In this document: piece after piece, positions 109 to 16,867 of the stretch
Position numbering within the stretch: the first letter of the stretch is position 1
Layout: each line of letters opens with the position of its first letter
Source: Elusimicrobia bacterium RIFOXYD2_FULL_34_15
GTDB lineage: Bacteria; Elusimicrobiota; UBA8919
DNA length: 64,000 nt
Assembly: GCA_001800605.1 (NCBI GenBank)
Contig: MGVS01000068.1
Span: forward strand, 14,028 to 78,027
Direction: 5' to 3'
The notes under the pieces: generated by a model
Told to the model about the DNA's origin: nothing
Database searches by the model: none
Seen by the model: the letters and a program-made list of their open reading frames with translations, nothing else
Translations under genes and position numbers: made by a program

Positions 109-223
109 TAATTTTTAAAAATTATAAAAAAGTGAAGCTTACTGCTTTGTTCGGTTTTAGACGAGCAATTTAACTTATTTCTGTACCTCAAACAAAAAAT
201 TTTCTTTTAAAGCAAAAAAATGC

Positions 224-252
224 TTGACAATTAATGAATTATTCTTTATAAT
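224..252 (+). promoter_or_regulatory. Near-consensus sigma70 promoter upstream of pilM (TTGACA 224-229, 17-nt spacer, TATAAT 247-252)
   Basis: Exact -35 and -10 hexamers with a 17-nt spacer. The -10 ends 9 nt before the pilM ATG at 262, which implies a leaderless or near-leaderless transcript. Confidence 0.6.
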
Positions 253-261
253 TTTCTCATC

Positions 262-1422
262 ATGCAAACGACAGCGCAATTAAAAGGTATTACTGAAAAA
301 TTTAAAAACGTAAAACTTCCTTTCGGAAAACCAAAAGAAGTTGTTGCAGTTGATATTGGAAGTCATTCAGTTAAAATTGTTCAATTAAAACATACCGGTG
401 AAAAGTGGACGCTTGAAAAATATGCTTCCGCAATAGCCACTAGTCTCGATTCCGCTGAAGTAACACCTCTAGAAAGAAAACAAGTTGCTATTAACGCTAT
501 TAAAAAGTTACTTTCAGAAAATAAAATCTCAGCAAAAGACGCAGTAACTTCTGTCTCCGGTAATTCAGTTATTGTAAGATATGTAAAATTTCCAAAGCTC
601 ACACCGGAACAACTTTCAAAAACAATCCAATTTGAAGCAGAACCATTCATTCCTTTTCCAATTCAAGACGTAAACATCAGTTTCCAGATACTAGGCGACG
701 TAACAGAAGAAGGTTCGCAAAAAATGGAAACCATTTTAGTTGCAGCCAAAAAAGAAATAATACAAAATAAACTTGACATATTAATGGAAGCAGGTTTAAT
801 ACCTGTGGTTGTTGATGTCGATTCATTCGCACTTGAAAATGCAATATCAATAAATGCAACTGAAGAAGAAATAAAACAGGTATATTTAATAATAAATTGC
901 GGTATGTCTACAACAAATATAAGTATTGTTGAAGACGGCACTTCTCGCGTTGTAAGAGACGTGTTCACTGCTTCTTCGAGTTTCACAAAAGCAATTCAGA
1001 GAAATCTACAAGCTGACTGGAAACAATCAGAAGAAAAGAAATTTAAACATGGAATTCTTGTAACTCCTGAACAAAAAGAAGAAGCTCTCGCAAAAGGGAA
1101 TGATGAAGCGTTGCAAATTTCGACAATACTGATATCGGCCGTTAAAGAATTGGTTGCCGAATGCCAAAGATCTATTGATTTTTACCAAACGCAATCTGCT
1201 GCAGAAAAACCTGTAAACAAAATATATCTATGCGGCGGCGGTGCTCTACTTAAAGGTTTGGATAAATACATTGAGTCACAACTGCATTTACCTGTCGAAA
1301 TATTAAATCCTTTTGCAAAATTAACTGATAAAGCCGGCATTCCGGATGAAGAAATAAGGAAATTTTCACAGTATGCTGTTGCAGTAGGCCTGGCAACAAG
1401 AAGAAGAGGGGACGTAAAATAG
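262..1422 (+). CDS. pilM: Type IV pilus assembly ATPase-fold protein PilM
   Basis: 386 aa. N-terminal VVAVDIGSHSVKIV actin-like/FtsA-like fold typical of PilM. First gene of a pilMNOPQ order. Confidence 0.88.
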   Translation: MQTTAQLKGITEKFKNVKLPFGKPKEVVAVDIGSHSVKIVQLKHTGEKWTLEKYASAIATSLDSAEVTPLERKQVAINAIKKLLSENKISAKDAVTSVSGNSVIVRYVKFPKLTPEQLSKTIQFEAEPFIPFPIQDVNISFQILGDVTEEGSQKMETILVAAKKEIIQNKLDILMEAGLIPVVVDVDSFALENAISINATEEEIKQVYLIINCGMSTTNISIVEDGTSRVVRDVFTASSSFTKAIQRNLQADWKQSEEKKFKHGILVTPEQKEEALAKGNDEALQISTILISAVKELVAECQRSIDFYQTQSAAEKPVNKIYLCGGGALLKGLDKYIESQLHLPVEILNPFAKLTDKAGIPDEEIRKFSQYAVAVGLATRRRGDVK

Positions 1423-1429
1423 AATAAAT

Positions 1430-1993
1430 ATGACTAAAATAAACCTTATACCTAAGGAATCTATTATAAAAGAAAGCCATCCTGAGATGACTGCTCTTTT
1501 GTTAACTATAATTTCTTTATTAATTTTAGTTCTTGGTTATACATATATAGCCAAACTAACAAAGCGTTCCTCAATCAAAAAAGAAATTGTTGTTGTTGAT
1601 AGTGAATTAGCACAATTACAAACAGTAATAGATCAAATAGCCCGTATAAAAGCACAAAAAGATGCAATTAACGCAAAGAAAACTGCTCTTGAATCTTTGA
1701 ATAAATCACGATTAGTATATCCTATATTTATGGAAGATCTGGTAAAAATATTACCACCTGGAATGTGGCTTTTAAATTTAAATACAAAATCAGTTGAATC
1801 TATTATGCAAATTAATTTTAATGCATCTGCTTATGATAACTATATAATAGCTGATCTGCTTCAAGCTCTAGAAAATTCAAACAAATTTAATAGTCCGGAA
1901 ATTAGCGGAATAACAACTTCAGTTTCAGCTGATAGAGGAATAATAAAACAATTTTCTATAACGGTAAATTACATAAATCAGGAGTGGAAATAA
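1430..1993 (+). CDS. pilN: Type IV pilus inner-membrane assembly protein PilN
   Basis: 187 aa. Single N-terminal TM helix followed by a coiled-coil and periplasmic domain. Position between pilM and pilO. Confidence 0.8.
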   Translation: MTKINLIPKESIIKESHPEMTALLLTIISLLILVLGYTYIAKLTKRSSIKKEIVVVDSELAQLQTVIDQIARIKAQKDAINAKKTALESLNKSRLVYPIFMEDLVKILPPGMWLLNLNTKSVESIMQINFNASAYDNYIIADLLQALENSNKFNSPEISGITTSVSADRGIIKQFSITVNYINQEWK

Positions 1994-1999
1994 TATAAT

Positions 2000-2542
2000 A
2001 TGAAAAAACTAACCAACCAGGAAAAAGGTGCTCTACTAATTATAACTGTTGTTGGTTTATGGGCGTATTGGAAATATCTCTATTCACCAATAACACGTGA
2101 AATTACAGGTTTGCAGAGTGAGTTATCGGAAAAGCAAGCAAAACTTGAGGCAACCCGTCAGGCGGCACAAGAACTAGAAGTTTTACAGGCAGAATTCAAA
2201 ATAATAGAGATAGAAGCAAGAGAAATGGAAAAGAAACTACCAAAATCTAAGGATTTGCCAAAATTAATAAGAGATATAACAAGAGCGATGGAAAGGCATA
2301 GAATTAACGCTCAATCATTCACTCCTTCAAAAGAAATACAAAAAACTTATTTTTCTGAGATCCCAATAACACTAGCTGCAAGTTGTAATTATCATAACCT
2401 TGCTAATTTTATAGCTGATATCGGGCAATTTGAAAGAATAATTAATACATTTGATGTTGTTATGACTCCAAAACAAGCTACAAAAGAATCGCCAGATTCA
2501 TTAACAGTAAATTTTAGGCTTGCAACATACATGGCAAAATAA
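2000..2542 (+). CDS. pilO: Type IV pilus assembly protein PilO
   Basis: 180 aa. N-terminal TM helix, coiled coil and PilO-like C-terminal domain. Synteny. Confidence 0.78.
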   Translation: MKKLTNQEKGALLIITVVGLWAYWKYLYSPITREITGLQSELSEKQAKLEATRQAAQELEVLQAEFKIIEIEAREMEKKLPKSKDLPKLIRDITRAMERHRINAQSFTPSKEIQKTYFSEIPITLAASCNYHNLANFIADIGQFERIINTFDVVMTPKQATKESPDSLTVNFRLATYMAK

Positions 2543-2548
2543 AATATT

Positions 2549-3073
2549 ATGAAAATAAATAATAAAATTTGTTTATTACTAAATTTTTTGTTCCTAACTT
2601 CGTTGATAGTTAATTTCGGATGTAGTAAGAAAAAAGCTACGGATGATGCTCAGCAGGTTACTGCTCCCCGTCCAAAACCAAAAATTCCGGAATATGTCCC
2701 ACCGGTTCCTCCACGCAAATATATTTACAAAGGTGCTGCTTATCGTGACCCTTTGTTACCAGGCGGTGGCGGTATGGCTTATTCAGCTTTGGCTGAAAGT
2801 GGCGAAGGTACCGAAACGTTCACAAGTGAAAAATTAGCTACATTGCAATTAAAAGGAATATTTAGAGATAAGAATTCCAGACAAGCAATAGCCATGATAG
2901 GTGATTCTTCCGGTGGATCCTATATGTTAAAGGAAGGAAAACTCTATAATAGAAGAAACAAAATAGTTAATGACGTATCCGGTGTTGTAGGACAAAAATC
3001 AATTACTCTCATTTGTAATGATATTAAAGTTGAATTATCTTTGAAAAAATCTGAGGAGGAAAAAGAAAAATGA
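2549..3073 (+). CDS. pilP: Type IV pilus assembly lipoprotein PilP
   Basis: 174 aa. Lipoprotein signal (LIVNFGCSKKK), Pro-rich linker and C-terminal beta domain. Immediately precedes the secretin. Confidence 0.72.
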   Translation: MKINNKICLLLNFLFLTSLIVNFGCSKKKATDDAQQVTAPRPKPKIPEYVPPVPPRKYIYKGAAYRDPLLPGGGGMAYSALAESGEGTETFTSEKLATLQLKGIFRDKNSRQAIAMIGDSSGGSYMLKEGKLYNRRNKIVNDVSGVVGQKSITLICNDIKVELSLKKSEEEKEK

Positions 3074-4809
3074 AAATTAAATTATCTGAAATCCCTAAAA
3101 AGGTTCGTTTTACCTGTGCAACTTTTTCAATGATGTTTGTACTAATCTCATGCAGTATAGCTTCACAACTAACAGATATAATAACAAAATCGGAACCGAA
3201 TAGTGACTCTATCTCTATCATAGTTTCATCGAAAACAAAATTCAACGTTTATAGAATACAGGAACCCAATAGAATAGTAATTGAACTATCAAGTTGCGAA
3301 TATGTATCAGACAAAAAAGATTTGCAAGTAAATTCGCAATTCATTAAATCAATACGCGGCGGACAATATACAGACGCTCCTGTAAAAAAATCAAGAATAA
3401 TTGTTGATTTAAGTAAACCTGCAAAATATTCTTCAAAAGCAACTGCCACAGAAATAACAATTGATTTAACCGCAAAAGTTACTAATTCGAAAACAGCTAC
3501 ACCAAAAGCTAAAAAGGTTGAAACAGCAAAAACTGATCCAGCTCCTGGAAATACACCAGTGGACGGCCAAAAACCTGCTGCAAAAAAAGTAATCAAAGAG
3601 AAAACATTGCCTATTAAAAAAATAGTGCAAAAACCTATTAAACACGGTGAACTTCCAAAAGATATTGTAACTTTAGATTTTAATAATGCTGATATTAAAG
3701 ATGTATTTCAAATACTTGCAATAAAAACCGGAATGAATATAATTTATAGCGATGATGTTTCTGGAAATTTGACTATTCATCTCGAAAATGTCCCTTTCAA
3801 TGAAGCAATGAATCTTATTCTTCAAATGCAAGGCTTAATACTTCAGCAGGTTGGATCTAATGTAATTCGTATAATGACACCTGCGACTTTAGCCAAAGAA
3901 CGTGCAGATGCCATTCAGGTTTCACAAGTATTCCGTTTAAATTATTCAAAAGCTGTTGATATTAGCGGTAAAATTTCATCTATAATGAGTGCTGAAGGGC
4001 AAAAAGTAAGTTTACAAACTGATGAAAGAACAAATAGTATCATAGTTACCTCAACTCCTGAAGGCATTCAGGCTGCATTATCTTTAATGAACAAATTAGA
4101 TGTTAAACCTGAACAGGTAGTAATTGAAGCAAAAATTGTGGAAATATCAATAGGCGATACAAAAGATATTGGTATCGACTGGTCTTTAACGCGAGATATA
4201 ATGAATAATTCAAATTCAAGAATATCTGAAAATGCTCAGTCGCAAACACCCTCACAATCACAAGTTGGTTCTTTTACATTTGGATATTTGCGTAGTGATA
4301 TAGAACTCACGGCACGTCTTGCTGCAGCACAATCCAAGGGAAGAGCTAAAATATTATCACAACCCAGAATTGCTACTCTTAATAATATGTTGGCAAAAAT
4401 CGTTGTAGGCGGGCAGATACCATATACACAAACAAGTATTGGCTCTGGAGGCGTTTCGACTACGTCAACTGCTTTCATGACAGTTGGAATTCAGCTTGAA
4501 GTTACACCTACAATAAATGTTGATGGAAGAATAACAATGTTAGTAAGACCGAATGTATCCAATGTAACAAGGATTTCCGCTATAGGACCTGAAACAACTA
4601 CCAAAGAAGCAGAAACTACTGTACTAGTCAAAAACGGAGAGACTATAGTAATTGGCGGATTAATAACTAATAATGAAAGAAAAGATGCATCTCAAATACC
4701 ATTACTTGGCGATGTACCAATTTTAGGCCAATTCTTCAAGAGTTATCATGATGATAAACAAAATACTGAACTTATTATATTTGTAACCCCTTACATAATG
4801 AAAGACTAA
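3070..4809 (+). CDS. pilQ: Type IV pilus secretin PilQ (AMIN + N0/N1 + secretin domains)
   Basis: 579 aa. N-terminal AMIN-like region and a Lys/Pro-rich linker. C-terminal secretin signature (VVIGGLITNNERKDASQIPLLGDVPILGQFF). Confidence 0.9.
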   Translation: MKIKLSEIPKKVRFTCATFSMMFVLISCSIASQLTDIITKSEPNSDSISIIVSSKTKFNVYRIQEPNRIVIELSSCEYVSDKKDLQVNSQFIKSIRGGQYTDAPVKKSRIIVDLSKPAKYSSKATATEITIDLTAKVTNSKTATPKAKKVETAKTDPAPGNTPVDGQKPAAKKVIKEKTLPIKKIVQKPIKHGELPKDIVTLDFNNADIKDVFQILAIKTGMNIIYSDDVSGNLTIHLENVPFNEAMNLILQMQGLILQQVGSNVIRIMTPATLAKERADAIQVSQVFRLNYSKAVDISGKISSIMSAEGQKVSLQTDERTNSIIVTSTPEGIQAALSLMNKLDVKPEQVVIEAKIVEISIGDTKDIGIDWSLTRDIMNNSNSRISENAQSQTPSQSQVGSFTFGYLRSDIELTARLAAAQSKGRAKILSQPRIATLNNMLAKIVVGGQIPYTQTSIGSGGVSTTSTAFMTVGIQLEVTPTINVDGRITMLVRPNVSNVTRISAIGPETTTKEAETTVLVKNGETIVIGGLITNNERKDASQIPLLGDVPILGQFFKSYHDDKQNTELIIFVTPYIMKD

Positions 4810-4823
4810 CTTCAGGAGGAAAT

Positions 4824-5708
4824 ATGATAATCAAAAAGGAAATAACTAAAATGAAAAAATTATTGTTAATTGTTGTTTTATCTGTATTTGTTCTTATTCC
4901 TACTTTTACATTTTCTGAAGTTTTTGTTGAACCCTATGTTGGTTATAATTCATTCCAAAAAATCAATGCTCTAAATAATTTGATAGAAAATTATACATTT
5001 TTTGCTAATCCTCCTGCTACATTTTCAATAATTAAAGGCGGATGGGATTTTGGAGCAAAATTAGGAATTGAAATAACAAAACAGAAAAATTTGTTCCTTA
5101 CTGGAAAAATGTCATATCTTGATGCAGAAACAGATATGAGATATTTACAGCAAGTTAATGTTCCTGTAAACCAAGGAACACTGAATTGGTTTTTGGGTTA
5201 TCCTGACAATTTCAAAGTAAGTCTTTTGACAGGGCAAGTAGGTCTTCGGATTACACCTTATCAAACAAAGAAAGCTTCAGTTGGTTTTGATGTATCCGGT
5301 GGTCCTGCATCAGGTGAAGTAACAGTTGATGGAACCGGACTATTTTTCAATGGAACAAGTTCATTTACTTATACATTTGATAGTCCTTATAAAAAAACAT
5401 CAAGCGTATTTGAAGTTTCTGTTATATTTGAACTTAAACCATTTACCGCATCTTATGATAAACCAGATGATTTAACAAGCGGCGAACTATTCCCGGTAAA
5501 GGAAACAACTTTAACGCTAGCCATTGGAAGCAGATTTGCTAATATCGGAGATCTGAAATCTACCAAAAATATAGATTTAAACAGTGATGGAGTAATTGAT
5601 ATTCCTAAAGGTACTACGTTGAAAAATACTCTAATTAATCTTGGTGATCCTTTAAAATTGGATCTATCATCGTTATTTTTTAATGTCGGAGTTAATGTTA
5701 AGTTTTAA
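4824..5708 (+). CDS. Secreted/outer-membrane beta-barrel-like hypothetical protein (C-terminal Phe)
   Basis: 294 aa. Signal peptide MKKLLLIVVLSVFVLIPTFTFS, beta-rich composition, terminal ...NVKF aromatic residue typical of OMPs. Confidence 0.4.
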   Translation: MIIKKEITKMKKLLLIVVLSVFVLIPTFTFSEVFVEPYVGYNSFQKINALNNLIENYTFFANPPATFSIIKGGWDFGAKLGIEITKQKNLFLTGKMSYLDAETDMRYLQQVNVPVNQGTLNWFLGYPDNFKVSLLTGQVGLRITPYQTKKASVGFDVSGGPASGEVTVDGTGLFFNGTSSFTYTFDSPYKKTSSVFEVSVIFELKPFTASYDKPDDLTSGELFPVKETTLTLAIGSRFANIGDLKSTKNIDLNSDGVIDIPKGTTLKNTLINLGDPLKLDLSSLFFNVGVNVKF

Positions 5709-6319
5709 TGCCTACTAACGAGGAAATCCTTACCTATATAAAACAAGGCGACTCATTTAAACAATCCGATAATTTAACCGCGGCTATATCTGAGTTTCAA
5801 AAAGCATTAAAAATAGCACCTGATAATGTAGAAGTACTCTATAAACTTGGCCAAATTTACGAAATCAAAGGTGACCAGGAAGAAGAATCTGCATTTTATG
5901 TTCTTTCTCAACATGCATATGAAAAAGTAGTCACAAAAGATCCAAATAATGCTGAAGCGCATAATGCACTAATAACTCTCGGGGTCAAGCAAAACCGCAT
6001 TGATGAACTAATTAAATTATACAAGGAAAAACTTACCAAATATCCTGATAATAAGATAATAGCAGATTCAGTAAAAAAGTTAACAACAATATCTTTTGTA
6101 AGTATACCTCCCAGCTCTACAGATAGAGGCGACAGAAGGGGGTGTGCAAAGATTTTTCTTGATTATATTTTTCCTTTTATCGGAATAGTGCCATTGTTAC
6201 TCGGTACTATGATACCTAAAATAAAAATACTGCAGTCTCTAGGAATAATAATTTTACTAACCTACCTATTATATAAGTTTTCCACAGCAAAAAAATCAAG
6301 TAAACGTAAAAAGTGGTAA
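5708..6319 (+). CDS. TPR-repeat protein with C-terminal transmembrane anchor
   Basis: 203 aa. TPR-like N-terminus (ALKIAPDNVEVLYKLGQIY...) and two hydrophobic helices at the C-terminus. Confidence 0.5.
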   Translation: MPTNEEILTYIKQGDSFKQSDNLTAAISEFQKALKIAPDNVEVLYKLGQIYEIKGDQEEESAFYVLSQHAYEKVVTKDPNNAEAHNALITLGVKQNRIDELIKLYKEKLTKYPDNKIIADSVKKLTTISFVSIPPSSTDRGDRRGCAKIFLDYIFPFIGIVPLLLGTMIPKIKILQSLGIIILLTYLLYKFSTAKKSSKRKKW

Positions 6320-7779
6320 TTAATCTTTTTTTAACAATTATCCTAACAATCACACCATTATTTAGTGCTTCCTGGAATTTGTGGACACAAATAATAATTC
6401 ATATTTTATTATATCTTTGTCTGTTGCTCCTCATTTTAAAAAAAGAAATATCTATACCTTTTTATAAATATACAACTATACCTCTGCTTATTTTTGTGTT
6501 TTTCTGTTTTATATCTATCTTTACATCAGCTAATATTTATGAATCAAGAAATGGCTTTTTAAATATAATTGATTGTATAATAATTTATTTTCTTGCAAAA
6601 AACTCAGACGAAAAAACAATATTAACATCGATTCTTATTAGTGGTTCTATCTTATCACTCTACGCCATCTATCAAAGAATATTCATTAGTAATTACATTC
6701 CATCTTTAATGGTTAATCCTAACATTTTTGCCGGTTATCTAGTAGGTATTATATGCTTAACATTTAGTCTATTTTTTAAAAACTTGAATAAACAACAATT
6801 TATAAAAAATATATTCTATTTATTATTATTTTTGCTTTTTATAACAGCACTTTTTCTAACAAATTCTATTGCTGCTTGGTTATCAGTTATTTTTGGAATC
6901 TATATATTTTTGTATTTAAATAATATAAAAATTTCTTCTAAATATCGATTAATAATAATTACTGTGTCAATTTCACTGTTGATTTATAAAATCATTGAAA
7001 AGGACTCTTATAATCGAGTTATTTGGTGGCTATCAGCATTCAAAATGATATGGAAAAACCCTCTTTCCGGTGTAGGACTATCTGCATTTGGAGATGCATA
7101 CCAGAAATATAAAATAAGCGGCCTCAATTCAATCTATGCTCATAATTATTACTTGCAAATCGCTGCTGAAATAGGTATATTCGGGTTTTTTTCACTTATT
7201 TATTTTTTTAAAAAAATATTTTCAGAAATTAAAACAAACGATACTATACCATTTTTTATTGCAATTGGTGCGATGTTATTTCACGGGATTTTTGATTATT
7301 CATTAGCTATTCCGGCAAACGCTATTCTTTTTTGGACATTTGCAGGATTTACATCAAAAAATGAAGAAAAATATATTTTTAAAATTAAGGGGAATAAAAG
7401 AACAATTATTAATTGGTTAACTGTTTTCTTAATTTCATTGGGTGTTTATTCTTCGATAAATATTTTTTTAGGCAGCAGAGAAATGGCCCGAGGCAAATAT
7501 TTTCTGGATGAAAAAAACCTTGATATAGCTCAAGAACATATTGAAAAATCCTTAAACTTCGATAAATACAATCCGCAAACCTATCTTTATTTATCGGATA
7601 TATATCAACAGCTTTTTAAAATTACAAAATATCAATCATATTTGTATGAATCAGAAATTGAGCTTGAAAAAGCTTCAAAATTGCAAAAATATAACTCAAA
7701 AGTATATTTTGACACATATCTTAATAATGAAAGAAAAGACCTTAAAACAGCGTTATATGGGCTTAAAAAAGGCTTATGA
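6313..7779 (+). CDS. O-antigen ligase-like (Wzy_C/WaaL family) polytopic membrane protein with C-terminal TPR domain
   Basis: 488 aa. Many TM helices. The periplasmic-loop motif YAHNYYLQIAAEIGIFG is diagnostic of the Wzy_C/O-antigen ligase family. The soluble C-terminal tail is TPR-like. Confidence 0.72.
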   Translation: MVINLFLTIILTITPLFSASWNLWTQIIIHILLYLCLLLLILKKEISIPFYKYTTIPLLIFVFFCFISIFTSANIYESRNGFLNIIDCIIIYFLAKNSDEKTILTSILISGSILSLYAIYQRIFISNYIPSLMVNPNIFAGYLVGIICLTFSLFFKNLNKQQFIKNIFYLLLFLLFITALFLTNSIAAWLSVIFGIYIFLYLNNIKISSKYRLIIITVSISLLIYKIIEKDSYNRVIWWLSAFKMIWKNPLSGVGLSAFGDAYQKYKISGLNSIYAHNYYLQIAAEIGIFGFFSLIYFFKKIFSEIKTNDTIPFFIAIGAMLFHGIFDYSLAIPANAILFWTFAGFTSKNEEKYIFKIKGNKRTIINWLTVFLISLGVYSSINIFLGSREMARGKYFLDEKNLDIAQEHIEKSLNFDKYNPQTYLYLSDIYQQLFKITKYQSYLYESEIELEKASKLQKYNSKVYFDTYLNNERKDLKTALYGLKKGL

Positions 7780-7831
7780 ATCATCACCCAAATCTTTATA
7801 CCCCATTAGAGATTAGTTTATAAACTTATCT

Positions 7832-9562
7832 ATGAAATATAAAATAAATATAGAGATAATTAGATATTTGTTGTTATTTATATTAGTATCTGCACCATTT
7901 TTTAACGGTTTAAAAGATCCTGTTCCTCTTTTTGTATTTGAAACATTAGTTTTCATCTTGTCTTTTATTTTTATGTATTTTTTCAAAGTTAAAAAAACAG
8001 CTTTAGATTTACCGATTACTTTATTCTTTACTTTTTTGGCAATTTCCACTTCAACTTCGGTTTACTTTAATGCTTCCCTGAATACTATGTTAATGCTTCT
8101 ATCTTTCGTATTTCTCTTTTATGTAACTATATCAGTCTATGATGATAAATTTAAAAAATATTTTTATTATTGTTTTATATCCGTTTCTTTTATCATTTCA
8201 ATAATAATTATGGTACAGAGTTTTTTATCATATATCCCTAAGGCAACTTTGCCTAATCCAAATTTAGCAGCTGGGTATATTGCATGTGCATCAACAATTA
8301 TATTCTCATATACTATTTCTAATAAAATTTCAATCAAATTTAAAATTCTTAATGTTATTTTTTTTCTATTTCTTTGTTTTTCAATAATATTAACACATTC
8401 ACGTGGTGGCTTTTTTGCTTTAATCTGTGGAATATCATTTAATATTATATTGAAATTTAAAAAATGGGGAATTATATTAACGATTTTTACAGCTTTATTT
8501 ACATTTGTTATTTTACCTGCAAATTTTGTAAAAAATATAGCTAAAATTGATACTGGAGATACTTATTCATTAAAAAGAAGTGAAATTTGGAAATCAGCTA
8601 TAAAAATAATCATTGAAAAACCGTTTTTTGGCACCGGGCCCGGTAATTTTGAACTTTTGTTTTTCAAATATAATTTTCCTGTCGATAATGGAATTTCACG
8701 CTTCGGTAAACATACAAGATTTGCCCATAATGAATTTTTGCAAATTGCTGCTGAAAGCGGTATTTTCTCACTTTTTGCATTTATTTTCGTAATATTTATA
8801 ATATTTAAAAATATGAAAGGCAATCCAGTTTTCACGTCTGCTTTGATCGCAATCATTTCACATTCACTGGTAGACTTTAATCTTCACTTACCTGCAATTA
8901 CTATAATTGCTATATTTCTAACAGCTGATATTCTTTATAAAATAGAATATAACGATAATAACATTAATTCTAAATATTTAAAAATATTTTTGTTAATAAT
9001 CATAGTATTTAATTCAATAAATTTCTTTTTTAAACCTTTTGACTCTGTAAAATACAAGAAAACTGCAGATAAACTTATCGATAGATATCCTGAAAAAAGT
9101 CTCGAACTTTATAAAAAAGTAATTGAATTTTCACCTGACGATTTTGAATACAGAAGAATAATCGGTGAATTGTTTTATTCCAATAATAATAAATTACAAG
9201 CAATTGAGAACTTAAACATATCTATAAAACTTAATCCAAACAGTCCGTTTGCCATAACTTCACTTGCAAATATTTATTTTAATTTAAAAGAGTTTAACAA
9301 AGCCGAACCTTATTTTTTGAGAGCTTTGGAAATTGAACCCAACTATCTTCTTCCAAGATATTTTCTGGCAAAAATAGATGAAAGAAGGGGCAAAATTGAT
9401 TCTGCTACAAACGAATATAAAAATATAATTCTGACATATAATTATTTCAAAAATAATTATATGTCATTTTCAGGTTATGAGAAATTGCTGTTTTATATTG
9501 ATATTTCTTCTGTAAATAATTCTTTAAAATCAATTTCAGAATCTAAAGGCAAAACCCGTTAG
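7832..9562 (+). CDS. O-antigen ligase-like (Wzy_C family) membrane protein with C-terminal TPR repeats (paralog)
   Basis: 576 aa. Motifs HSRGG and FAHNEFLQIAAESGIFS (Wzy_C). C-terminal TPR repeats (NLNISIKLNPNSPFAITSLANIYFNLKEFNKAEPYFLRALEIEPN). Confidence 0.72.
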   Translation: MKYKINIEIIRYLLLFILVSAPFFNGLKDPVPLFVFETLVFILSFIFMYFFKVKKTALDLPITLFFTFLAISTSTSVYFNASLNTMLMLLSFVFLFYVTISVYDDKFKKYFYYCFISVSFIISIIIMVQSFLSYIPKATLPNPNLAAGYIACASTIIFSYTISNKISIKFKILNVIFFLFLCFSIILTHSRGGFFALICGISFNIILKFKKWGIILTIFTALFTFVILPANFVKNIAKIDTGDTYSLKRSEIWKSAIKIIIEKPFFGTGPGNFELLFFKYNFPVDNGISRFGKHTRFAHNEFLQIAAESGIFSLFAFIFVIFIIFKNMKGNPVFTSALIAIISHSLVDFNLHLPAITIIAIFLTADILYKIEYNDNNINSKYLKIFLLIIIVFNSINFFFKPFDSVKYKKTADKLIDRYPEKSLELYKKVIEFSPDDFEYRRIIGELFYSNNNKLQAIENLNISIKLNPNSPFAITSLANIYFNLKEFNKAEPYFLRALEIEPNYLLPRYFLAKIDERRGKIDSATNEYKNIILTYNYFKNNYMSFSGYEKLLFYIDISSVNNSLKSISESKGKTR

Positions 9563-9658
9563 AGATTAGTTTATAATATGAATACAGATATTTTTTAGTA
9601 TCACTGAAGCCGTAGGAAATGCTTCCTATCTCCTACGGGGTATATTCAAAAAGTACTT

Positions 9659-11578
9659 ATGAAAAAGAAAGATATTATTTGGATTATATTTATTTTAATT
9701 ATTGTTGTTTTTCAATATAATGAAATTATTTTTCATAAAAAAATATTTTTTATGCGAGATTTAACATATCTTTTTCATCCTTGGAAGACCGCAGTATCAG
9801 AATCATTACTAAAAGGAAACATACCTTTATGGAACCCTTATTCATACTGTGGAATGCCTCTTTTAGCCAATTTCCAATCAGCAGTTTTTTATCCTTTTTC
9901 AATACTTTTTTATGTCTTTGGATTTATCAACGGTTTAAAACTTTTTACAATATTACATACTTTTTTAGGATCTCTATTTGTTTTTTTGTATTTTCGCAAT
10001 AAGAAATTCAAAATAATGCCTTCTTTTACAGTTGGGATAATATTCTCATTAGGCGGTTATTTAATAACAAAAATAGAATTTTTAAGCTTATATGGAACAA
10101 CCATCTGGCTTCCCTTGTTTCTTATGCTTTCTCTAAATTCTAATATATTTATAGGAGCATTGGTTTTCTCTTTTATTATATTTGCAGGATATCCACCTAT
10201 TATAATATTTTTCTTGACTTTATTATTTATTGAAGCATTTTTTGATAAGAAATTAAAAAATATTTTATTAATATTACTTTCCGGGCTTTTAGTATCATCT
10301 ATCCAAATTTTACCTTCGATAGAACTAATTTTAAACTCTATAAGAAAAAGCGGTTTGTCTATAACAGACACAACTGTTTGGTCGGCAAATTTTTCTGATA
10401 TTATATCACTAATTTCACCTATATTTTTAAAAGTTGAACAAACAGGCCTGTTCAGTGGTGAAAAATATTTTTGGTTAAAATCATTTTGGATAGGATTTAT
10501 CGCAGCTTTTATGGCAATCCTTGGAATAATTATCACAATATTTAATAAAGATTTTTATTTAAATAGAAAAAAGTCTATCGTATATTTGTGTTTGGTTCTG
10601 TTTTCGCTGTTTTTCTCACTTGGCAGTAAAACACCAATTTATATTTTTATATATAAATATATACCCGTATTTAATTTAATCCGGTATCCAGCTTATATAT
10701 TGTTAATTCCTTTCTTTATATTTATAATCTATATTGCAACCGGACTTAATAATATAAAAAAAGCATCATTTTTACTTACTTTTTTAATAGTTTTTGAACT
10801 TTTAATATATACTCACAAAATACATCCGACAATAGAATATAATTACTATTCTGAAAAAGGTTCAATTACCAATTTTCTTCAGAAAGATAAAGATTATTTC
10901 AGGTTCTTTCTGACTCCAAAAACTGCTTGGTCCGAAAAAATAAAGATACCTGATTACGGGAATATCGGATGGTATATTCTAAAGGATCGTCTTCCGGGAA
11001 TAACGTCAATAACATCGCACCTTTTTGATGCAGGAGGAATAGGGGAACCCATTGAAACAATAGAACATTCAAGATTTATTAATCAAATTCAATTAAAAAA
11101 CAGTGCTGATGATGCAAATGAACTTTTATCAGATGCAAATGTAAAATATCTTTTATGCGATGATATTATTAATTCAAAATTCTGGAAATTAGCATATAAA
11201 TCGCATCTATTTATTTACAAAAATAGTAATTTTGTTGAAAGAAGTTTTGTCATAGATAAAAATAATAAAAAAAGGGCATCAAATATTATTTATTATTCAC
11301 CTGACAAAATAAAAGTTGAGACAGTAAATTCGGGTAATCTTTTATTTTTAGATTCTTATTATCCGGGCTGGCAGGCATATATCAATGGTAAAAAAAGCGC
11401 TATTCGTAAAGATAACTATATCTTCCGTGCAATAACTTTAAAAAATTCAGATAAATATTTAATACATTTTCTCTATCGTCCTATTTTATTTACTATTGGT
11501 GTGTTGATTTCTCTTATATCAATTTGTATAATTATAATCTGTGATATACTTACTTTTACCGGCATTCAACGAAGCTGA
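9659..11578 (+). CDS. YfhO-like GT-C fold membrane glycosyltransferase
   Basis: 639 aa polytopic protein. N-terminal motif NIPLWNPYSYCGMPLLANFQSAVFYPF matches the YfhO family signature. Large C-terminal extracytoplasmic domain. Confidence 0.6.
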   Translation: MKKKDIIWIIFILIIVVFQYNEIIFHKKIFFMRDLTYLFHPWKTAVSESLLKGNIPLWNPYSYCGMPLLANFQSAVFYPFSILFYVFGFINGLKLFTILHTFLGSLFVFLYFRNKKFKIMPSFTVGIIFSLGGYLITKIEFLSLYGTTIWLPLFLMLSLNSNIFIGALVFSFIIFAGYPPIIIFFLTLLFIEAFFDKKLKNILLILLSGLLVSSIQILPSIELILNSIRKSGLSITDTTVWSANFSDIISLISPIFLKVEQTGLFSGEKYFWLKSFWIGFIAAFMAILGIIITIFNKDFYLNRKKSIVYLCLVLFSLFFSLGSKTPIYIFIYKYIPVFNLIRYPAYILLIPFFIFIIYIATGLNNIKKASFLLTFLIVFELLIYTHKIHPTIEYNYYSEKGSITNFLQKDKDYFRFFLTPKTAWSEKIKIPDYGNIGWYILKDRLPGITSITSHLFDAGGIGEPIETIEHSRFINQIQLKNSADDANELLSDANVKYLLCDDIINSKFWKLAYKSHLFIYKNSNFVERSFVIDKNNKKRASNIIYYSPDKIKVETVNSGNLLFLDSYYPGWQAYINGKKSAIRKDNYIFRAITLKNSDKYLIHFLYRPILFTIGVLISLISICIIIICDILTFTGIQRS

Positions 11579-12272
11579 AGGTATTGAAGTTTTAGTAAGA
11601 AATATTTCTTTTCAGCTTTCTAATCAGCAACATTCCATAATTATTGTCAATGATGGTTCTTTCGACAACACTCCAGATATATTAAAAAAACTACAACCAG
11701 AATTAAATCTTAATATAATAAATCACGAAAAAAATCTTGGTTTAGGTAAGGCGATGCAAACCGGAATAAATTATGTTTCATCAGTCATTAATAAAAACGA
11801 TATTCTAATCACTATGGATGCTGATAATACCCACCCTGTTGATTTAATGCAAAAACTTGAAGAGAAAATCAATAACGGTTATGATATTGCGATTGCTTCA
11901 AGATATGCATCCGGAGGAAAAGAAGTAGGATTGAAAAAGTATAGAAAGATTTTAAGCGGCGGTGCAGGAATAATTTTAAAACTTTTTTTCCCGATAAACA
12001 ATGTATCGGATTATACAAGCGGTTACCGTGCATATTCCGGAAATATAATTAAAAAAGCAAAAGATTTTTACGGGCAAAAGCTAGTAACAGTCTCAGGTTT
12101 TACTTGCATGGCTGAAATCCTTATAAAACTATCTAAAATAAACGCCTCTATATCAGAAGTCGGCCTAGTTTTACGTTACGACCTGAAAAGGGGGAAAAGC
12201 AAAATAAAAATCTTAAAAACTATTTTAGCATATTTTCATCTTATTTTGAGGTTAAAATTTGAAAAAGGCTAA
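11541..12272 (+). CDS. GT2 family polyprenyl-phosphate sugar synthase (DPM1/CsbB/GtrB-like)
   Basis: 243 aa. LPAFNEAEG, VNDGSFDNT and MDADNTHP (DxD) motifs of GT-A family 2 enzymes. It has a 38-nt overlap with the upstream YfhO-like gene. Confidence 0.75.
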   Translation: MIYLLLPAFNEAEGIEVLVRNISFQLSNQQHSIIIVNDGSFDNTPDILKKLQPELNLNIINHEKNLGLGKAMQTGINYVSSVINKNDILITMDADNTHPVDLMQKLEEKINNGYDIAIASRYASGGKEVGLKKYRKILSGGAGIILKLFFPINNVSDYTSGYRAYSGNIIKKAKDFYGQKLVTVSGFTCMAEILIKLSKINASISEVGLVLRYDLKRGKSKIKILKTILAYFHLILRLKFEKG

Positions 12273-13833
12273 AGTATTATTGTTATTTTCAATATTAGTA
12301 TTGTTTTTCTTTTACGATATAATATTTACAGATAAAATGTATCTTTTCAGAGATATATTGAATTTATTTATGCCATACCGGCTTTTTGCAGCAGAAAATA
12401 TTCAAAATGGAACTGTACCTATATGGAACCCTTATTCTTTTTTTGGTCAACCTTTTTTAGCTAATCCGGAAACTTCTTTATTTTATCCTTTTACAATTCT
12501 TTTTTATCTTTTCAAATTCACAATCGCATATAAAGTTTTTGTCATTTTGCATTTCTATCTAGCTTCAATATTTTTTTATTTTTTGGCAAAAACTCTTAAA
12601 ATAAAAAATTCATATGCTATATTTGGTTCAATTTGCTGGGCATTTGGCGGATATCTAATCACCCGTGTTGAATTTTTAAGTATTCTTGGCGCAGCGATTT
12701 GGCTTCCTCTTGCATTGATTTTTTTAATGAATAAAAATAAAATTTTACTCGGCTTGGTATTTGTTATGCAAATTTTTGCAGGCCACCCTCAAATTATATT
12801 TTATACAATTTTGCTGCTTTTATTTTTTCTTAAGAAAAATATTATTTATACGTTTATATTTTCTATTTTTTTTGCTTTGTTTTTGTCGTCTATTCAGATA
12901 ATACCTTCGTTTGAATTTATTCGCAGTTCAAACAGAGCAAAAGGAATTACTTATCAGGAAGCTTCGAGTGTTTCAATTTCACCTGCTGAAATTATCAAAA
13001 ACATTTTACCAATGAAAAATATAGATATTACAGGCAATTTTTGGCTTAAATCATTTTATGTCGGTTTGATTCCTTTAATATTTATTTTTACTTACTTTTT
13101 TAATAGCGATAAAAAGCTTCTCTTGCCTCTGATTGTAATATTAATTTTGGCATTAGGCAGAAATACTCCGGTTTATGAATTTCTATACAAATATTTGTTA
13201 CCTTTTTCAAGAATAAGATACCCGGCAGCAATAATGTTTCTATTCTCGTTCATAATCTGTTTAATGATTTCTAAATCAAATATTTACGATCTTTCAAAAT
13301 TTACACCTTTATTTATTATACTTACAATTTTTGATTTATATTTATATTCATATAAGCTTAATCCTAAAATATCTTCGGAATTTATAAATATTAAAACTAA
13401 AAATATATTAAACCTTCAAAAAAATACTGATGACGGAAAATATCTTGTTTTGCCCGACGTTTATTCAAACACATTGAACTATTACGATTTTATTAATACT
13501 TTACCTGCAAATGTTAATATACCTCATCATATTTTTAATGCTTCAGGGTATGACCCTCTAACGACAGAAGGGATAGAAACATTTGTTGAAAAGTTAAAAA
13601 ATGATACCAATGCCAAGGAATTATCTAAATATAATATCAAATATGTAATAACAAATAAGAATATTGATAATGGCTGGCGAAAATTGAAAAATAATATTTT
13701 CGAAAATAAATATTACAATACAAGTATATCTATAAATCCGCAAACATTTCGGCCTTGTCATATTTACTTTTTAGTTGGAATATGCTTAACTATATTTAGT
13801 ACCGTATTTCTTGCACTATACATTAAAATATGA
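12259..13833 (+). CDS. YfhO-like GT-C fold membrane glycosyltransferase (paralog)
   Basis: 524 aa. Motif TVPIWNPYSFFGQPFLANPETSLFYPF as in 9659..11578. Polytopic. Confidence 0.6.
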   Translation: MKKAKVLLLFSILVLFFFYDIIFTDKMYLFRDILNLFMPYRLFAAENIQNGTVPIWNPYSFFGQPFLANPETSLFYPFTILFYLFKFTIAYKVFVILHFYLASIFFYFLAKTLKIKNSYAIFGSICWAFGGYLITRVEFLSILGAAIWLPLALIFLMNKNKILLGLVFVMQIFAGHPQIIFYTILLLLFFLKKNIIYTFIFSIFFALFLSSIQIIPSFEFIRSSNRAKGITYQEASSVSISPAEIIKNILPMKNIDITGNFWLKSFYVGLIPLIFIFTYFFNSDKKLLLPLIVILILALGRNTPVYEFLYKYLLPFSRIRYPAAIMFLFSFIICLMISKSNIYDLSKFTPLFIILTIFDLYLYSYKLNPKISSEFINIKTKNILNLQKNTDDGKYLVLPDVYSNTLNYYDFINTLPANVNIPHHIFNASGYDPLTTEGIETFVEKLKNDTNAKELSKYNIKYVITNKNIDNGWRKLKNNIFENKYYNTSISINPQTFRPCHIYFLVGICLTIFSTVFLALYIKI

Positions 13834-14972
13834 AACTAAAAATTTGCATGTTATTAGAAAGATTTCATCCTGTATTCGGTGGTACCGAATTGCAGGCACA
13901 AAGATTGGCAAGATCGCTTATAAACTCAGGGAATGATGTCTTTATACTTACTGCACGGCTTAAAAAGCTAAATAAATATGAATTATTGGATAATCTTCCA
14001 ATCTATAGAACCTTTTCTATTGGAAAAGGCCTTTTATCTTCTATTTGTTTCTTTATCTCATCTTTTTTATTTCTCTTTATTAATCGCAATAAATACGAAA
14101 TTATACATGTTCATTTAGCTTCTTCACATGCATTCTCTGCAATTTTAATAAAGAAGCTTTTTAAAAAAAGAATTATTTTAAAATTTGGCGGTGCAAGGAG
14201 CACAGGCGATATTGCTACTTCACTATCTAAACCTTTAGGAAAACTAAAACTAAATATACTAAAAAAATATTTTGATATTTACATTGTTCCTAGTAAAGAG
14301 GTTTTTGATGAAATAATTTCCGAAGGATTTTCTATAGATAAAACCCTTATAATTCCAAACGGCGTAAACACCGATATTTTTAAGCGAGTGGATTTGAATG
14401 AAAAAATAAACTTAAGAAAAGTTCTTGGTTTGCCTATTGACAAACAAATCTGTATCTATGTCGGAAGAATTGAAGAAGGGAAGGGTATTAATCTCCTTTT
14501 AAACATATGGAAAAATGTTACAGAAAATTACGTTCTTTTAATAATAGGTTCCGGTTCTTTACTTGAAAAATTTAAAAAATCTTTTCAAAATAAAAATATT
14601 GTTTTTTTGGGATTCAAGAATAATGTTAATAATTATTTACAAGCATCGGATTTATTCATACTGCCGTCTTTTGGTGAGGGCCTTTCCAACGCAATTCTTG
14701 AAGCAATGTCATGCGGTCTTGTTGCAGTAGCAAATAAAATACCCTCAAATGAGGAAATCATAATCGATAGGGACAATGGTATTCTTATAAATATAGATAC
14801 AATTAAGGATTTTCCCAATCTAATCAATCAGATTTTTTCAAACAAAGAAATGTTCAACAAATTATCTTTCTCTGCAGTTAAAACAATAGAAAATAGATTT
14901 TCTATTAATATCGTTACAAATTCATATATAAAACTATATAGAAACATTTTATCCAATTATAAACAAGCTTGA
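13830..14972 (+). CDS. Glycosyltransferase family 4 (GT-B, Glycos_transf_1)
   Basis: 380 aa. C-terminal EGLSNAILEAMSCGLVAVA motif typical of GT4. Confidence 0.8.
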   Translation: MKLKICMLLERFHPVFGGTELQAQRLARSLINSGNDVFILTARLKKLNKYELLDNLPIYRTFSIGKGLLSSICFFISSFLFLFINRNKYEIIHVHLASSHAFSAILIKKLFKKRIILKFGGARSTGDIATSLSKPLGKLKLNILKKYFDIYIVPSKEVFDEIISEGFSIDKTLIIPNGVNTDIFKRVDLNEKINLRKVLGLPIDKQICIYVGRIEEGKGINLLLNIWKNVTENYVLLIIGSGSLLEKFKKSFQNKNIVFLGFKNNVNNYLQASDLFILPSFGEGLSNAILEAMSCGLVAVANKIPSNEEIIIDRDNGILINIDTIKDFPNLINQIFSNKEMFNKLSFSAVKTIENRFSINIVTNSYIKLYRNILSNYKQA

Positions 14973-15049
14973 TAAATTTTATTTTATAAGTTAAATTAGT
15001 GACGAAAATAACAGATTTCTGTTCTTACTCTAAAGATTACTAACCAAAT

Positions 15050-16615
15050 ATGAAAATAACATTAATTTCAGTAACAGATGATATAACTGCATTCGGGTTA
15101 AGAAGTATTTCATCCTATTTAAAAAAGGCGGGACATTCCGTACGGATGATTTTCCTGCCTCAACCATTTTACAAAGGGCAACTTTCCGCAAAATATCCGG
15201 ATAATATTATTGACGAAGCGGTAAATCTATCTAAAGACTCCGATTTGATAGGTATATCTTTAATGACTAATCATTTTGAAAGGGCTGTGCAGATAACTCA
15301 AAATTTAAAAAAACATTTTGACATCCCGGTCATCTGGGGCGGAATTCATCCAACTGTTAAACCCGACGAAAGCCTAGAATACGCCGATATAGTTATTATT
15401 GGCGAAGGTGAGGAAACTTTGCAGGACTTAACTTCAAAAATAGATGAACTTCATAAAGTAAAAGGGATATACTTTAAAGATACGTCAGGTAAAATTGTAA
15501 AAAATGAAATGAGACCGCTAATCTGTGATTTGGACACAATACCGCCGCCAGATTATGATATTGAAGACCATTTTGTAATTGAAGGGAATAAAATTTACAA
15601 CATGAATGTTCCTCTTTTTAGAAAATATTTAGCAAGAACTTACAAACCCGATACTTACTACACAATGGCTACGCGGGGATGTATTATGAATTGTTCTTAT
15701 TGCTGCAACAATTTTTATTCTAGATATTATTCCGAACAGAAGAAATTCAGAAAAAGAAGCACAAAACATATAATTGACGAATTGAAAGCTATTTTGAAAA
15801 AATTCGATTTTATTAAGGTAATAGCATATTCAGATGATAGTTTTTTTTCAATTAGTTTCGACGAAATGAAGGATTTTTGCATTGAATACAAAAAAAATAT
15901 AGGAATGCCCCTTCAAATACCGGGCGTCTCTTACTGGAACTTCAGCGAAGAGAAACTTAAGCTTTGCCTTGATGCGGGACTTGAAAGAATACGTCTTGGA
16001 ATACAAACCTGCAGCGAGCGTACAAACAGAGAAATCTACAAACGTAATGTTTCAAATAAAAAATTGCTTGATATTATTAAAACTATAGATAAATACAAAT
16101 CACTTATGGAACCGCCGATGTACGATTTAATTCTTGATAATCCATGGGAGACCGATGATGATATAATCGAAACGTTAACTTTTTTGATTGAAATACCGAA
16201 ACCATATCATCTTTCTTTACATTCATTAACATTTTTTCCAGGAACTGAACTCTATGAAAGAGCAAAAAAAGAGAAACTAATTATTGATGATTTAAACGAT
16301 GTTTACCGTAAATACTATTGTGATTTTAAAAGAAATACTTATTTGAATAATTTATTTTTGCGCTTCTGGCTATGGAATATACCGAAACCTGTAGAAAAAT
16401 TACTAATAAATAAAACTCTCATTTCGACCGGATTGTATCGCGTTACTAACTTAATGATTAATTTTATAAGGTTAATCGAACTATTTTTCAAAGGATTAAA
16501 ATCTTTATTTAGGGGAAACTTATCTTCAATTTATTCTTACTTATTAGAGAGAATAAATACCTACAGAATAACAAAATCGTTATACAAAACATCCCGTAAA
16601 ACCGCTAAAAAATAG
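15050..16615 (+). CDS. B12-binding domain radical SAM enzyme (class B, candidate methyltransferase)
   Basis: 521 aa. N-terminal cobalamin-binding Rossmann domain (VIWGGIHPT, IIGEGEET) and CIMNCSYC (Cx3Cx2C) radical-SAM cluster motif. Confidence 0.85.
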   Translation: MKITLISVTDDITAFGLRSISSYLKKAGHSVRMIFLPQPFYKGQLSAKYPDNIIDEAVNLSKDSDLIGISLMTNHFERAVQITQNLKKHFDIPVIWGGIHPTVKPDESLEYADIVIIGEGEETLQDLTSKIDELHKVKGIYFKDTSGKIVKNEMRPLICDLDTIPPPDYDIEDHFVIEGNKIYNMNVPLFRKYLARTYKPDTYYTMATRGCIMNCSYCCNNFYSRYYSEQKKFRKRSTKHIIDELKAILKKFDFIKVIAYSDDSFFSISFDEMKDFCIEYKKNIGMPLQIPGVSYWNFSEEKLKLCLDAGLERIRLGIQTCSERTNREIYKRNVSNKKLLDIIKTIDKYKSLMEPPMYDLILDNPWETDDDIIETLTFLIEIPKPYHLSLHSLTFFPGTELYERAKKEKLIIDDLNDVYRKYYCDFKRNTYLNNLFLRFWLWNIPKPVEKLLINKTLISTGLYRVTNLMINFIRLIELFFKGLKSLFRGNLSSIYSYLLERINTYRITKSLYKTSRKTAKK

Positions 16616-16806
16616 TCTTAAATCAATTAACTGTTTTATAGTGTAAATAAGTTTTCAATTTATATTGTTACGAATTTATATCTAAAACTCTACCGGGACA
16701 TCCTATCAAAATGAGTTATAGAGTTTATTGAGTTCTTAGAGTTTTAGCGTTAGAATCCTATAACCCTATAACCCAAAAACCTATAAACTTCCTCTAAAAA
16801 AAGAGC

Positions 16807-16835: not shown

Positions 16836-16867
16836 ATATTTAGAACGTTTAATACGTTTTAAACAAT

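Follow-up and report, generated by a model that had tools for sequence, protein, structure and literature searches.

The Wzy_C domain occurs in the O-antigen ligase WaaL, in Wzy polymerases and in protein O-oligosaccharyltransferases (O-OTases), and cannot by itself tell these enzymes apart (PMC3643930; PMC12645811). Four O-OTase classes have been characterised, all from Proteobacteria (PMC9829042), and the known pilin oligosaccharyltransferases are encoded beside their substrate (PMC3643930; PMC9829042; PMC12645811). This work addresses two adjacent genes of Elusimicrobia bacterium RIFOXYD2_FULL_34_15, a groundwater metagenome-assembled genome (MAG), which encode proteins combining Wzy_C with tetratricopeptide repeats (TPRs). 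The window, i.e. the whole stretch of DNA that was analysed, is 64 kb long; in it, protein A (488 aa) is encoded at 6313-7779 and protein B (576 aa, 100% identical to A2539_04410 of the same genome) at 7832-9562, both on the + strand and in the same operon-like run as the type IV pilus genes pilMNOPQ. An earlier note had proposed, from the sequence of the window, that these proteins transfer glycans onto pilin or other proteins; its coordinates and the two Wzy_C motifs that it quoted are correct. The family membership, the conserved residues, the predicted topology, the pairing or fusion of A and B and the synteny are directly supported by the analyses below. From these sequence data, A and B appear to be co-functioning inner-membrane enzymes of the Wzy_C / O-antigen-ligase (WaaL-PglL) superfamily, and it is plausible that they constitute a TPR-type protein (pilin) O-OTase system.

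Several types of described enzymes can be compared with this pair. PglL and PglS, which are O-OTases acting on internal sequons, are marked by PglL_A and Wzy_C_2 domains next to Wzy_C (PMC3643930; PMC12645811). TfpO and TfpM comprise 420-470 aa, lack an additional C-terminal domain and target the C-terminal Ser/Thr of the adjacent pilin (PMC9829042). WsfB from Paenibacillus alvei, a predicted S-layer protein O-OTase, consists of Wzy_C and C-terminal TPRs, whereas WsaB from Geobacillus stearothermophilus is devoid of TPRs but its gene is closely preceded by that of a small TPR protein, WsaA, of 168 aa (PMC2943079). TfpW, the arabinosyltransferase of Pseudomonas aeruginosa group IV pilins, is a GT-C glycosyltransferase that ends in a periplasmic TPR domain and whose gene accompanies that of its pilin substrate (bioRxiv 10.1101/2020.04.19.049825). 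The literature search retrieved no paper joining O-antigen ligase, TPR and type IV pili; for the combination of Wzy_C and TPR, it retrieved only an S-layer review, a survey of cyanobacterial exopolysaccharides and a paper on export in Myxococcus, and a search for WsfB added nothing to these. WaaL, with its 12 transmembrane (TM) helices, is devoid of TPRs; its acceptor is lipid A-core and its gene is usually part of a core-lipopolysaccharide (LPS) cluster.

The locus studied here resembles each of these systems in part. Like WsfB, B joins Wzy_C to C-terminal TPRs; as in the WsaA-WsaB couple, a TPR protein of 203 aa (hereafter TPR203) is encoded just upstream of A; and in all three cases these genes head a cluster for glycan biosynthesis. 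The WsfB-type architecture, i.e. Wzy_C followed by a C-terminal TPR domain or accompanied by an upstream TPR protein, is thus found at the A/B locus. This likeness is drawn from the published descriptions of WsfB and WsaB, which are single enzymes from Gram-positive Firmicutes with an S-layer acceptor, whereas the present locus carries two paralogues in a pilus operon of diderm Elusimicrobia. Like Neisseria PglL (PDB 9RMK), whose substrates include pilin, the family displays a Wzy_C core, the Arg-Arg-His residues and an extra C-terminal periplasmic domain; however, unlike in PglL and PglS, this domain is a TPR domain, PglL_A and Wzy_C_2 are lacking and the A+B profile scores only 33 bits against PglL. 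Like TfpO (PilO) and TfpM, A and B are Wzy_C enzymes encoded among type IV pilus genes, and in one relative (locus L012) the gene of the B orthologue lies directly 3' of a pilin gene; they differ from them by their length (488 and 576 aa), by a thirteenth TM helix followed by TPRs and by associated pilins that end in Trp. The WaaL of Cupriavidus metallidurans (7TPG) is the best solved relative and WaaL, including that of E. coli, has the same catalytic residues, but the present proteins differ from it by helix 13 and the periplasmic TPRs, by their location in a pilus operon and by the absence of LPS-core genes from the window. Finally, TfpW is also a polytopic membrane enzyme with a periplasmic TPR domain and works like the model proposed below, although its fold is of the GT-C (ArnT/PMT) type and its donor is a polyprenyl-monophosphate sugar; locus L012 itself encodes, beside its pilin, a PMT_2+TPR GT-C. 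TPR tails on protein-glycosylating enzymes thus have precedents in WsfB and TfpW. What is new here is the pair of TPR-tailed paralogues, their fusion elsewhere and their location within pilus operons of an uncultured phylum.

Domains and topology of A and B

As the earlier note had stated, both proteins belong to the Wzy_C family (Pfam PF04932, IPR007016), with scores of 47.0 bits for A and 76.6 bits for B vs a cut-off of 31.7; A carries the motif ..SIYAHNYYLQIAAEIGIFG.. and B the motif ..TRFAHNEFLQIAAESGIFS... Membership in the IctB family was considered and rejected: TIGR00947 is the best NCBIfam match for A and B, yet it scores 41-44 bits vs a cut-off of 366. Both families share an almost invariant NPN motif (aa 142-144 of B, ~8255-8263; aa 135-137 of A, ~6715-6723), and the 'NPNL' pattern is known as a signature of the cyanobacterial IctB-like Wzy_C group (PMC4594306).

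The claim that both proteins are TPR fusions stands clearly for B. Indeed, the tail of B (aa ~405-571) matches TPR_1 with 48.2 bits vs a cut-off of 27.8 and matches TPR structures of the PDB, the closest of which include the TPR domain of OGT. For A, the repeats are only weakly visible: its tail has no Pfam TPR match when searched as a single sequence, but the profile of the A family matches TPR proteins and structures, and the AlphaFold2 (AF2) model of aa ~400-487 superposes on domains of three TPRs at about 1.7 Å. Single-sequence searches of the PDB returned nothing for A and, for B, only TPR structures among the 60 matches listed.

The AF2 models (pLDDT 91.7 and pTM 0.88 for B; pLDDT 84.1 and pTM 0.86 for A) show the same organization in both proteins: nine TM helices, a periplasmic loop of ~60-80 residues that is predicted to carry conserved residues, four TM helices and then the TPRs. 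The membrane domain carrying Wzy_C spans aa 1-~385 of A (nt 6313-7467), with TM helix 13 at aa ~362-383, and aa 1-404 of B (nt 7832-9043), with its 13 TM helices; it is followed by a tail of three repeats in A (aa ~400-488, nt 7510-7776) and by a predicted periplasmic TPR domain in B (aa 405-576, nt 9044-9559), all on the + strand. Lys and Arg residues of the short loops are distributed 15 in/3 out in B and 10 in/0 out in A. From these models and this positive-inside bias, A and B are predicted to have a cytoplasmic N-terminus, 13 TM helices and TPRs in the periplasm. The core of WaaL in PDB 7TPG has 12 TM helices and lacks helix 13, and it is this additional helix that would place the TPRs in the periplasm.

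Catalytic residues and solved relatives

B carries a complete triad, R191 (nt 8402-8404), R249 (8576-8578) and H299 (8726-8728). According to profile alignments to PDB sequences and to an hhalign comparison with E. coli WaaL (a weak match, with a probability of 47%), these residues align with R224/R298/H349 of PglL and R215/R288/H338 of E. coli WaaL, which are essential (PMC3643930). Among 28 B homologues, 24 have the equivalent of R191, all 28 that of R249 and 27 that of H299. A has R235 (nt 7015-7017) and H277 (7141-7143), kept in 20/20 and 17/20 of its homologues, but I186 stands at the position of WaaL R215 / PglL R224; close orthologues of A, as well as the A-like half of the fusions described below, likewise have I, L or V instead of this first Arg. 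Residues invariant in the alignment of the A and B membrane domains are, in B numbering, N144, S190, R249, W253, G267, G269, H299, Q304, E308, G310 and D348. Only two relevant solved structures were matched by the A+B profile in the PDB, first the WaaL of C. metallidurans (7TPG; 54.7 bits, E 7.8e-14) and second 9RMK, a 610-aa 'oligosaccharyltransferase' whose numbering matches N. meningitidis PglL (33 bits, E 3e-7).

These residues bear on whether A and B are enzymes at all. They could instead be mainly structural or accessory parts of the pilus, involved in TPR-mediated secretin assembly like PilF/PilW/Tgl or forming an envelope-spanning scaffold, with Wzy_C exerting little or no catalysis. 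Membership in the operon of pilMNOPQ, a weak NCBIfam TPR similarity to PilW, Tgl and GltE, and the lack of one catalytic Arg in A would fit such a role. Nevertheless, we regard it as very improbable, as the triad of B, like many residues of the periplasmic loop, has stayed invariant despite deep divergence, which indicates a maintained active site, as known pilotins are outer-membrane lipoproteins and not 13-TM inner-membrane proteins, and as the fused relatives have no pilus context.

Pairing and natural fusions

Homologues of A and B are found on common contigs and were adjacent wherever inspected. In a neighbour-joining tree of the locus-derived sequences, rooted on E. coli WaaL and devoid of support values, the A clade is separate from the B clade, which points to an old duplication. 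An exhaustive profile search gave 6,969 cluster representatives at E<=1e-30, and about 22 of the best 150 representatives have a length of 1020-1144 aa and match Wzy_C twice (for example P0156-P0159, P0161 and P0166-P0169, among others; loci L065-L069, L071, L078, L094, L132 and L135). The order within these fusions is the gene order observed here, i.e. an A-like module, a B-like module and one TPR tail. The A-like N-terminal module displays TKSIGG without Arg and YAHNYYLQ, and has neither its own helix 13 nor TPRs; the B-like module displays TxSRGG, FAHNEYLQ and DFNLHLP. These natural A-B-TPR fusions strongly suggest that A and B act in one process, probably as a complex.

The genes encoding the fusions are located next to genes of a processive-type GT2 glycosyltransferase and of a WecA/MraY-family phosphoglycosyltransferase (PGT) in L065-67, L069, L071, L078, L132 and L135, or next to YfhO-like genes in L068, L074, L079 and L094, and not beside pilus genes. 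As they adjoin glycan-initiation genes away from pilus genes, A-B may be one two-part enzyme, e.g. a polymerase and a transferase, rather than two independent O-OTases. The fusion, the GT2 and the WecA-like PGT form a compact three-gene glycan module with no obvious flippase.

The same fusions raise another explanation, in which A would be a Wzy-like polymerase and B a WaaL-like ligase for a non-protein surface glycoconjugate, e.g. LPS O-antigen or a different polymer anchored to a lipid or a glycan, the TPRs would scaffold an export or assembly machinery as in AlgK, BcsC and PelB, and the position near pil genes would be an inherited order of no functional significance. A double Wzy_C fusion fits two consecutive steps on one lipid-linked glycan, the fusions adjoin PGT and processive-type GT2 genes, and KdsA/KdsD are encoded near one of them (L065). 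Furthermore, WaaL is the best solved relative, Wzy_C is not diagnostic among WaaL, Wzy and O-OTases (PMC3643930; PMC12645811), and A and B head a large sugar-modification locus with a MOP flippase. We nevertheless consider this explanation rather unlikely, although it deserves serious attention. Indeed, a flippase is encoded in the window at 17396-18964, but neither Wzz (polysaccharide co-polymerase, PCP), nor an outer-membrane polysaccharide (OPX) exporter (Wza), nor LPS-core genes (heptosyltransferase, Kdo or lpx genes) were found in its 64 kb. A protein-binding domain would be unnecessary for a lipid A-core acceptor, and remote Wzy_C-TPR homologues are found in a Patescibacteria-labelled MAG (P0038) and on small-genome contigs, where a role in LPS is unlikely if these organisms are monoderm.

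Association with type IV pilus genes

When one genome per species was scanned with an alignment of B proteins only, 24 loci encoding full-length B homologues were found, which belong to Elusimicrobia MAGs and to secretin-encoding MAGs labelled 'bacterium' or 'Clostridia bacterium'. In 17/19 loci with enough flanking sequence, pilMNOPQ lies <=10 kb from the B homologue, a count that overstates independence since the genomes and loci are phylogenetically related; in contrast, none of the 26 remote Wzy_C loci (Verrucomicrobia, Acidobacteria, Desulfobacterota) shows this proximity. Three arrangements were observed: (i) pilMNOPQ-(OMP)-TPR203-A-B-YfhO, where OMP is an outer-membrane-like protein gene, as in the window; (ii) pilC-pilin-prepilin peptidase (pilD)-B-B'-pilMNOPQ-A'-YfhO in L009, L030, L032 and L034; and (iii) in L012, a PMT_2 GT-C, the PMT_2+TPR GT-C, a GT2, the pilin, a B orthologue (56% identical to B), a small ORF and a prepilin peptidase. 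Among more distant unfused relatives, PilQ or PilC is encoded close by in L097, L111 and L112, and one (L061) follows pilMNO. The link with pili rests on this linkage, on its absence from the remote loci and on the three arrangements, and attachment of the sugars to pilin or surface proteins is probable on this gene context.

Part of the pil synteny could nevertheless be an inherited order. In Proteobacteria, pilMNOPQ keeps functionally unrelated neighbours such as aroK-aroB, and aro genes, these classic neighbours of pilMNOPQ, also adjoin relatives of A and B, a point that would favour the polymerase and ligase explanation. This order is, however, a poor explanation for three different pilus arrangements, one of them placing the gene between those of the pilin and the prepilin peptidase. 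At the level of the whole family, the general trait would be a coupling to lipid-linked glycan synthesis, the coupling to pili being specific to this clade. As an observation in its own right, L061 shows the order pilMNO(P)-aroC-aroK-aroB-Wzy_C-TPR-aroQ, where, within the stretch displayed, the fourth pil gene is not separated from aroC by a secretin gene, and Wzy_C-TPR genes lie beside dehydroquinase or other aro genes on three unrelated contigs (L061 7943-11537, L065 3116-7046, L135 9518-13051). An old conserved gene order may thus tie pil, aro and the Wzy_C-TPR family.

A family of short type IVa pilins, with the N-terminus FTLIELMIVVAIIGILAA, is encoded near Wzy_C-TPR genes in six genomes (L009 8649-9167, L012 9393-9866, L018 1183-1719, L020 513-1040, L025 397-1044 and L030 8560-9042). 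These pilins have ~135-145 residues, with a variable segment rich in Ser, Thr, Asn and Gly and an invariant TDTK...W C-terminus, their last residue being Trp in 6/6 cases.

Two side observations concern other carriers of family genes. MAGs labelled 'Clostridia bacterium' carry a B-family gene in L018, L020, L021, L022, L023, L028 and L031; L018, L020, L021, L023 and L028 also carry pilMNOPQ with the secretin and the A/B pair, and the short contigs L022 and L031 carry only B and a YfhO-like gene. As a secretin implies an outer membrane, this label may be unreliable. In addition, two remote Wzy_C-TPR homologues, P0099 and P0096, are divergently adjacent to mreB-PBP2 (L062 7865-11025; L063 7879-11055), a position often occupied by rodA; their contigs consist of small housekeeping genes that are densely packed.

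A possible TPR-type pilin O-oligosaccharyltransferase

From these data we infer a donor, a protein acceptor, a role for the TPRs and a division of labour between A and B. B would most likely take a glycan from undecaprenyl pyrophosphate and transfer it en bloc to a hydroxyl acceptor; in the Elusimicrobia clade this acceptor would most likely be the type IV pilin, other envelope proteins being possible further targets. The TPRs would serve either to bind the acceptor protein or to anchor the enzyme at the PilMNOPQ machine. As A always accompanies B, is fused to it elsewhere and is devoid of the first Arg, it would most likely be an obligate partner, acting as a Wzy-like polymerase that extends the glycan on its lipid carrier or as a second subunit of the transferase. 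Taken as a whole, this reading, i.e. a pair using undecaprenyl-pyrophosphate-linked glycan in which B modifies pilin and perhaps further proteins of the envelope, the TPRs ensure recognition of the acceptor or the machine and A is an obligate partner, is the one we favour, but tentatively, its chances being slightly below even.

The protein or pilin O-OTase interpretation of the earlier note thus holds up for the family, for the predicted periplasmic TPRs and for the pilus link (17/19), whereas the lack of PglL_A and Wzy_C_2, the higher score of WaaL and the occurrence of fusions away from pili do not agree with it. The observations that weigh against our reading can be gathered as follows. 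Neither PglL_A (PF15864) nor Wzy_C_2 (PF11846) matches A or B at E<=0.01, and both are absent from the precomputed Pfam lists of the ~190 listed A/B homologues, among which there is no characterised protein. The A+B family is somewhat nearer to WaaL (7TPG) than to PglL (9RMK) by score. A has only two of the three catalytic residues. The window has neither a pilin gene nor, as far as found in its 64 kb, a gene of an initiating PGT. The fused A-B-TPR genes are not beside pilus genes, and one of them has KdsA/KdsD nearby. A C-terminal Ser/Thr acceptor in the style of TfpO/TfpM is excluded by the Trp at the end of the pilins encoded nearby in relatives, the relatedness of the genomes inflates the linkage count, and the pil order may be partly inherited. 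Finally, the acceptor could be a lipid or a glycan instead of a protein.

The lack of a pilin gene next to A and B in the window bears also on a broader role, namely general protein O-glycosylation, in which the periplasmic TPRs would recognize many periplasmic or outer-membrane proteins, pilin being one of them, as for Neisseria PglL. The fused relatives without pilus context point the same way, TPRs can be broad-specificity peptide binders, and the TPR domain of OGT is among the closest structural matches of B. Moreover, some residues of PglL have equivalents in B (N144 for N180, G267/G269 for G316/G318, D348 for E404), and Schulz et al. count these positions among the PglL-specific ones (PMC3643930). 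However, the WaaL of C. metallidurans also has GVGVGQF, and the equivalences may be ancestral to the whole family; the PglL_A and Wzy_C_2 domains were not found, and the strong linkage to pilus genes in this clade points to a dedicated substrate. A general O-glycosylation system seems to us quite unlikely on balance.

The pilin-directed reading can be extended to a bolder form that we consider doubtful. An obligate two-part enzyme, heterodimeric here and single-chain elsewhere, would represent a fifth, TPR-type O-OTase class, in which one module would prepare or polymerise the lipid-linked glycan and the other would transfer it to pilins; with the enzyme docked on PilMNOPQ by its periplasmic TPRs, pilus subunits would be glycosylated at this machine during assembly. 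Its acceptor-recognition domain would be unrelated to PglL, PglS, TfpO and TfpM, and such enzymes would be widespread in uncultivated phyla. The engineering of bioconjugate vaccines relies on Wzy_C O-OTases. A TPR-tailed class that recognizes its acceptor in another way and contains a second Wzy_C module would, if true, widen this toolbox and help to understand how acceptor specificity is encoded. In that case a dedicated operon-encoded machinery would also glycosylate the type IV pili in Elusimicrobia and related uncultured groups, pili which are thought to be central to the interactions of these organisms with surfaces and hosts. The A-B fusions provide a testable statement on the cooperation of two ligase-like modules, which bears on the relationship between Wzy polymerases and WaaL-type ligases.

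Gene organization upstream of A and B

The pil genes, called from Pfam and NCBIfam matches, are all on the + strand: pilM (262-1422; PilM_2, 190 bits), pilN (1430-1993; PilN, 40 bits), pilO (2000-2542; PilO, 94 bits), a pilP-like lipoprotein gene (2549-3073; a lipobox is seen in the sequence, without family match) and pilQ (3070-4809; Secretin 161 bits, TIGR02515 PilQ 291 bits), which encodes a secretin with an AMIN domain. A promoter-like site with a perfect sigma-70 consensus, TTGACA-17-TATAAT, lies closely 5' of pilM (224..252, + strand).

The statement that A and B lie directly downstream of pilMNOPQ needs amending: they belong to the same operon-like run, but two genes, both on the + strand, stand between pilQ and A. 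The first (4824-5708) encodes a 294-aa protein with a signal peptide and a C-terminal Phe (..VNVKF); it has no Pfam match, appears outer-membrane-like from these features and is kept after pilQ in close relatives. The second is the gene of TPR203 (5708-6319), which is located directly 5' of A in relatives too; its 3' end overlaps the start of A by 7 nt, the two genes being translationally coupled. TPR203 displays N-terminal TPRs (TPR_11, 50 bits), lacks a signal peptide and has a C-terminal TM hairpin whose hydrophobic segments span aa 149-169 and 174-188; this hairpin anchor with a strongly basic tail suggests that TPR203 is probably cytoplasmic.

Downstream of B, a YfhO-like GT-C (9659-11578), a GT2 of the polyprenyl-phosphate-sugar synthase type (11541-12272), a second YfhO-like GT-C (12259-13833) and a GT4 (13830-14972) are encoded on the same strand. 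All gaps between genes from pilM to the GT4 gene are <=96 nt and several genes overlap. In a scan of 1-18000, the next + strand site comparable in strength to the consensus promoter is only found at 16807-16835 (11/12 match). The genes from pilM to that of the GT4 therefore look like one co-transcribed operon. A minus-strand ORF within the gene of B (8563-8856) was treated as spurious. The GC content of the A and B genes is 0.26 vs 0.32-0.34; horizontal transfer was considered as a cause, but adjacent genes of membrane proteins are just as AT-rich and the gene order is conserved.

Downstream glycan locus

As the earlier note had also indicated, A and B head a glycan locus. In relatives, the YfhO/GT2/YfhO/GT4 module (9659-14972) is conserved along with A and B. 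For the genes of the window, the assignment to YfhO is weak (25 bits vs a cut-off of 28.5), but it is backed by the homologue from L012 (75.5 bits; phmmer E 2e-90). The short GT2 gene overlaps both flanking YfhO-like genes and this trio, which travels with A/B in relatives, looks like a second periplasmic glycosylation route with a monophosphate donor, for which CsbB/YfhO or Ppm1/Pmt provide the comparison.

Further downstream are found a MurJ/MOP-type flippase (17396-18964), many NAD-dependent sugar epimerases/dehydratases, GT2 and GT4 genes, an asparagine-synthase homologue and a PMT_2 GT-C. At least eight B12-binding radical-SAM genes lie within 15050-58216 (15050-16615, 18994-20595, 34779-36104, 36106-37518, 42573-44063, 45970-47538, 55366-56814 and 56795-58216), together with a radical-SAM gene of the SPASM type (41360-42535) and another that is HemN-like (37518-38945). 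The sugar epimerase/dehydratase, GT2/GT4 and asparagine-synthase-like genes are interspersed among them; a glycan locus so unusually rich in radical-SAM genes suggests heavily C-methylated or otherwise modified sugars. The locus is also interrupted, at 50495-54925, by a small mobile or defence-like insert that encodes HsdM (a type I restriction-modification methylase), a DUF3800 protein, an HTH protein, a PRiA4_ORF3-like protein and RadC.

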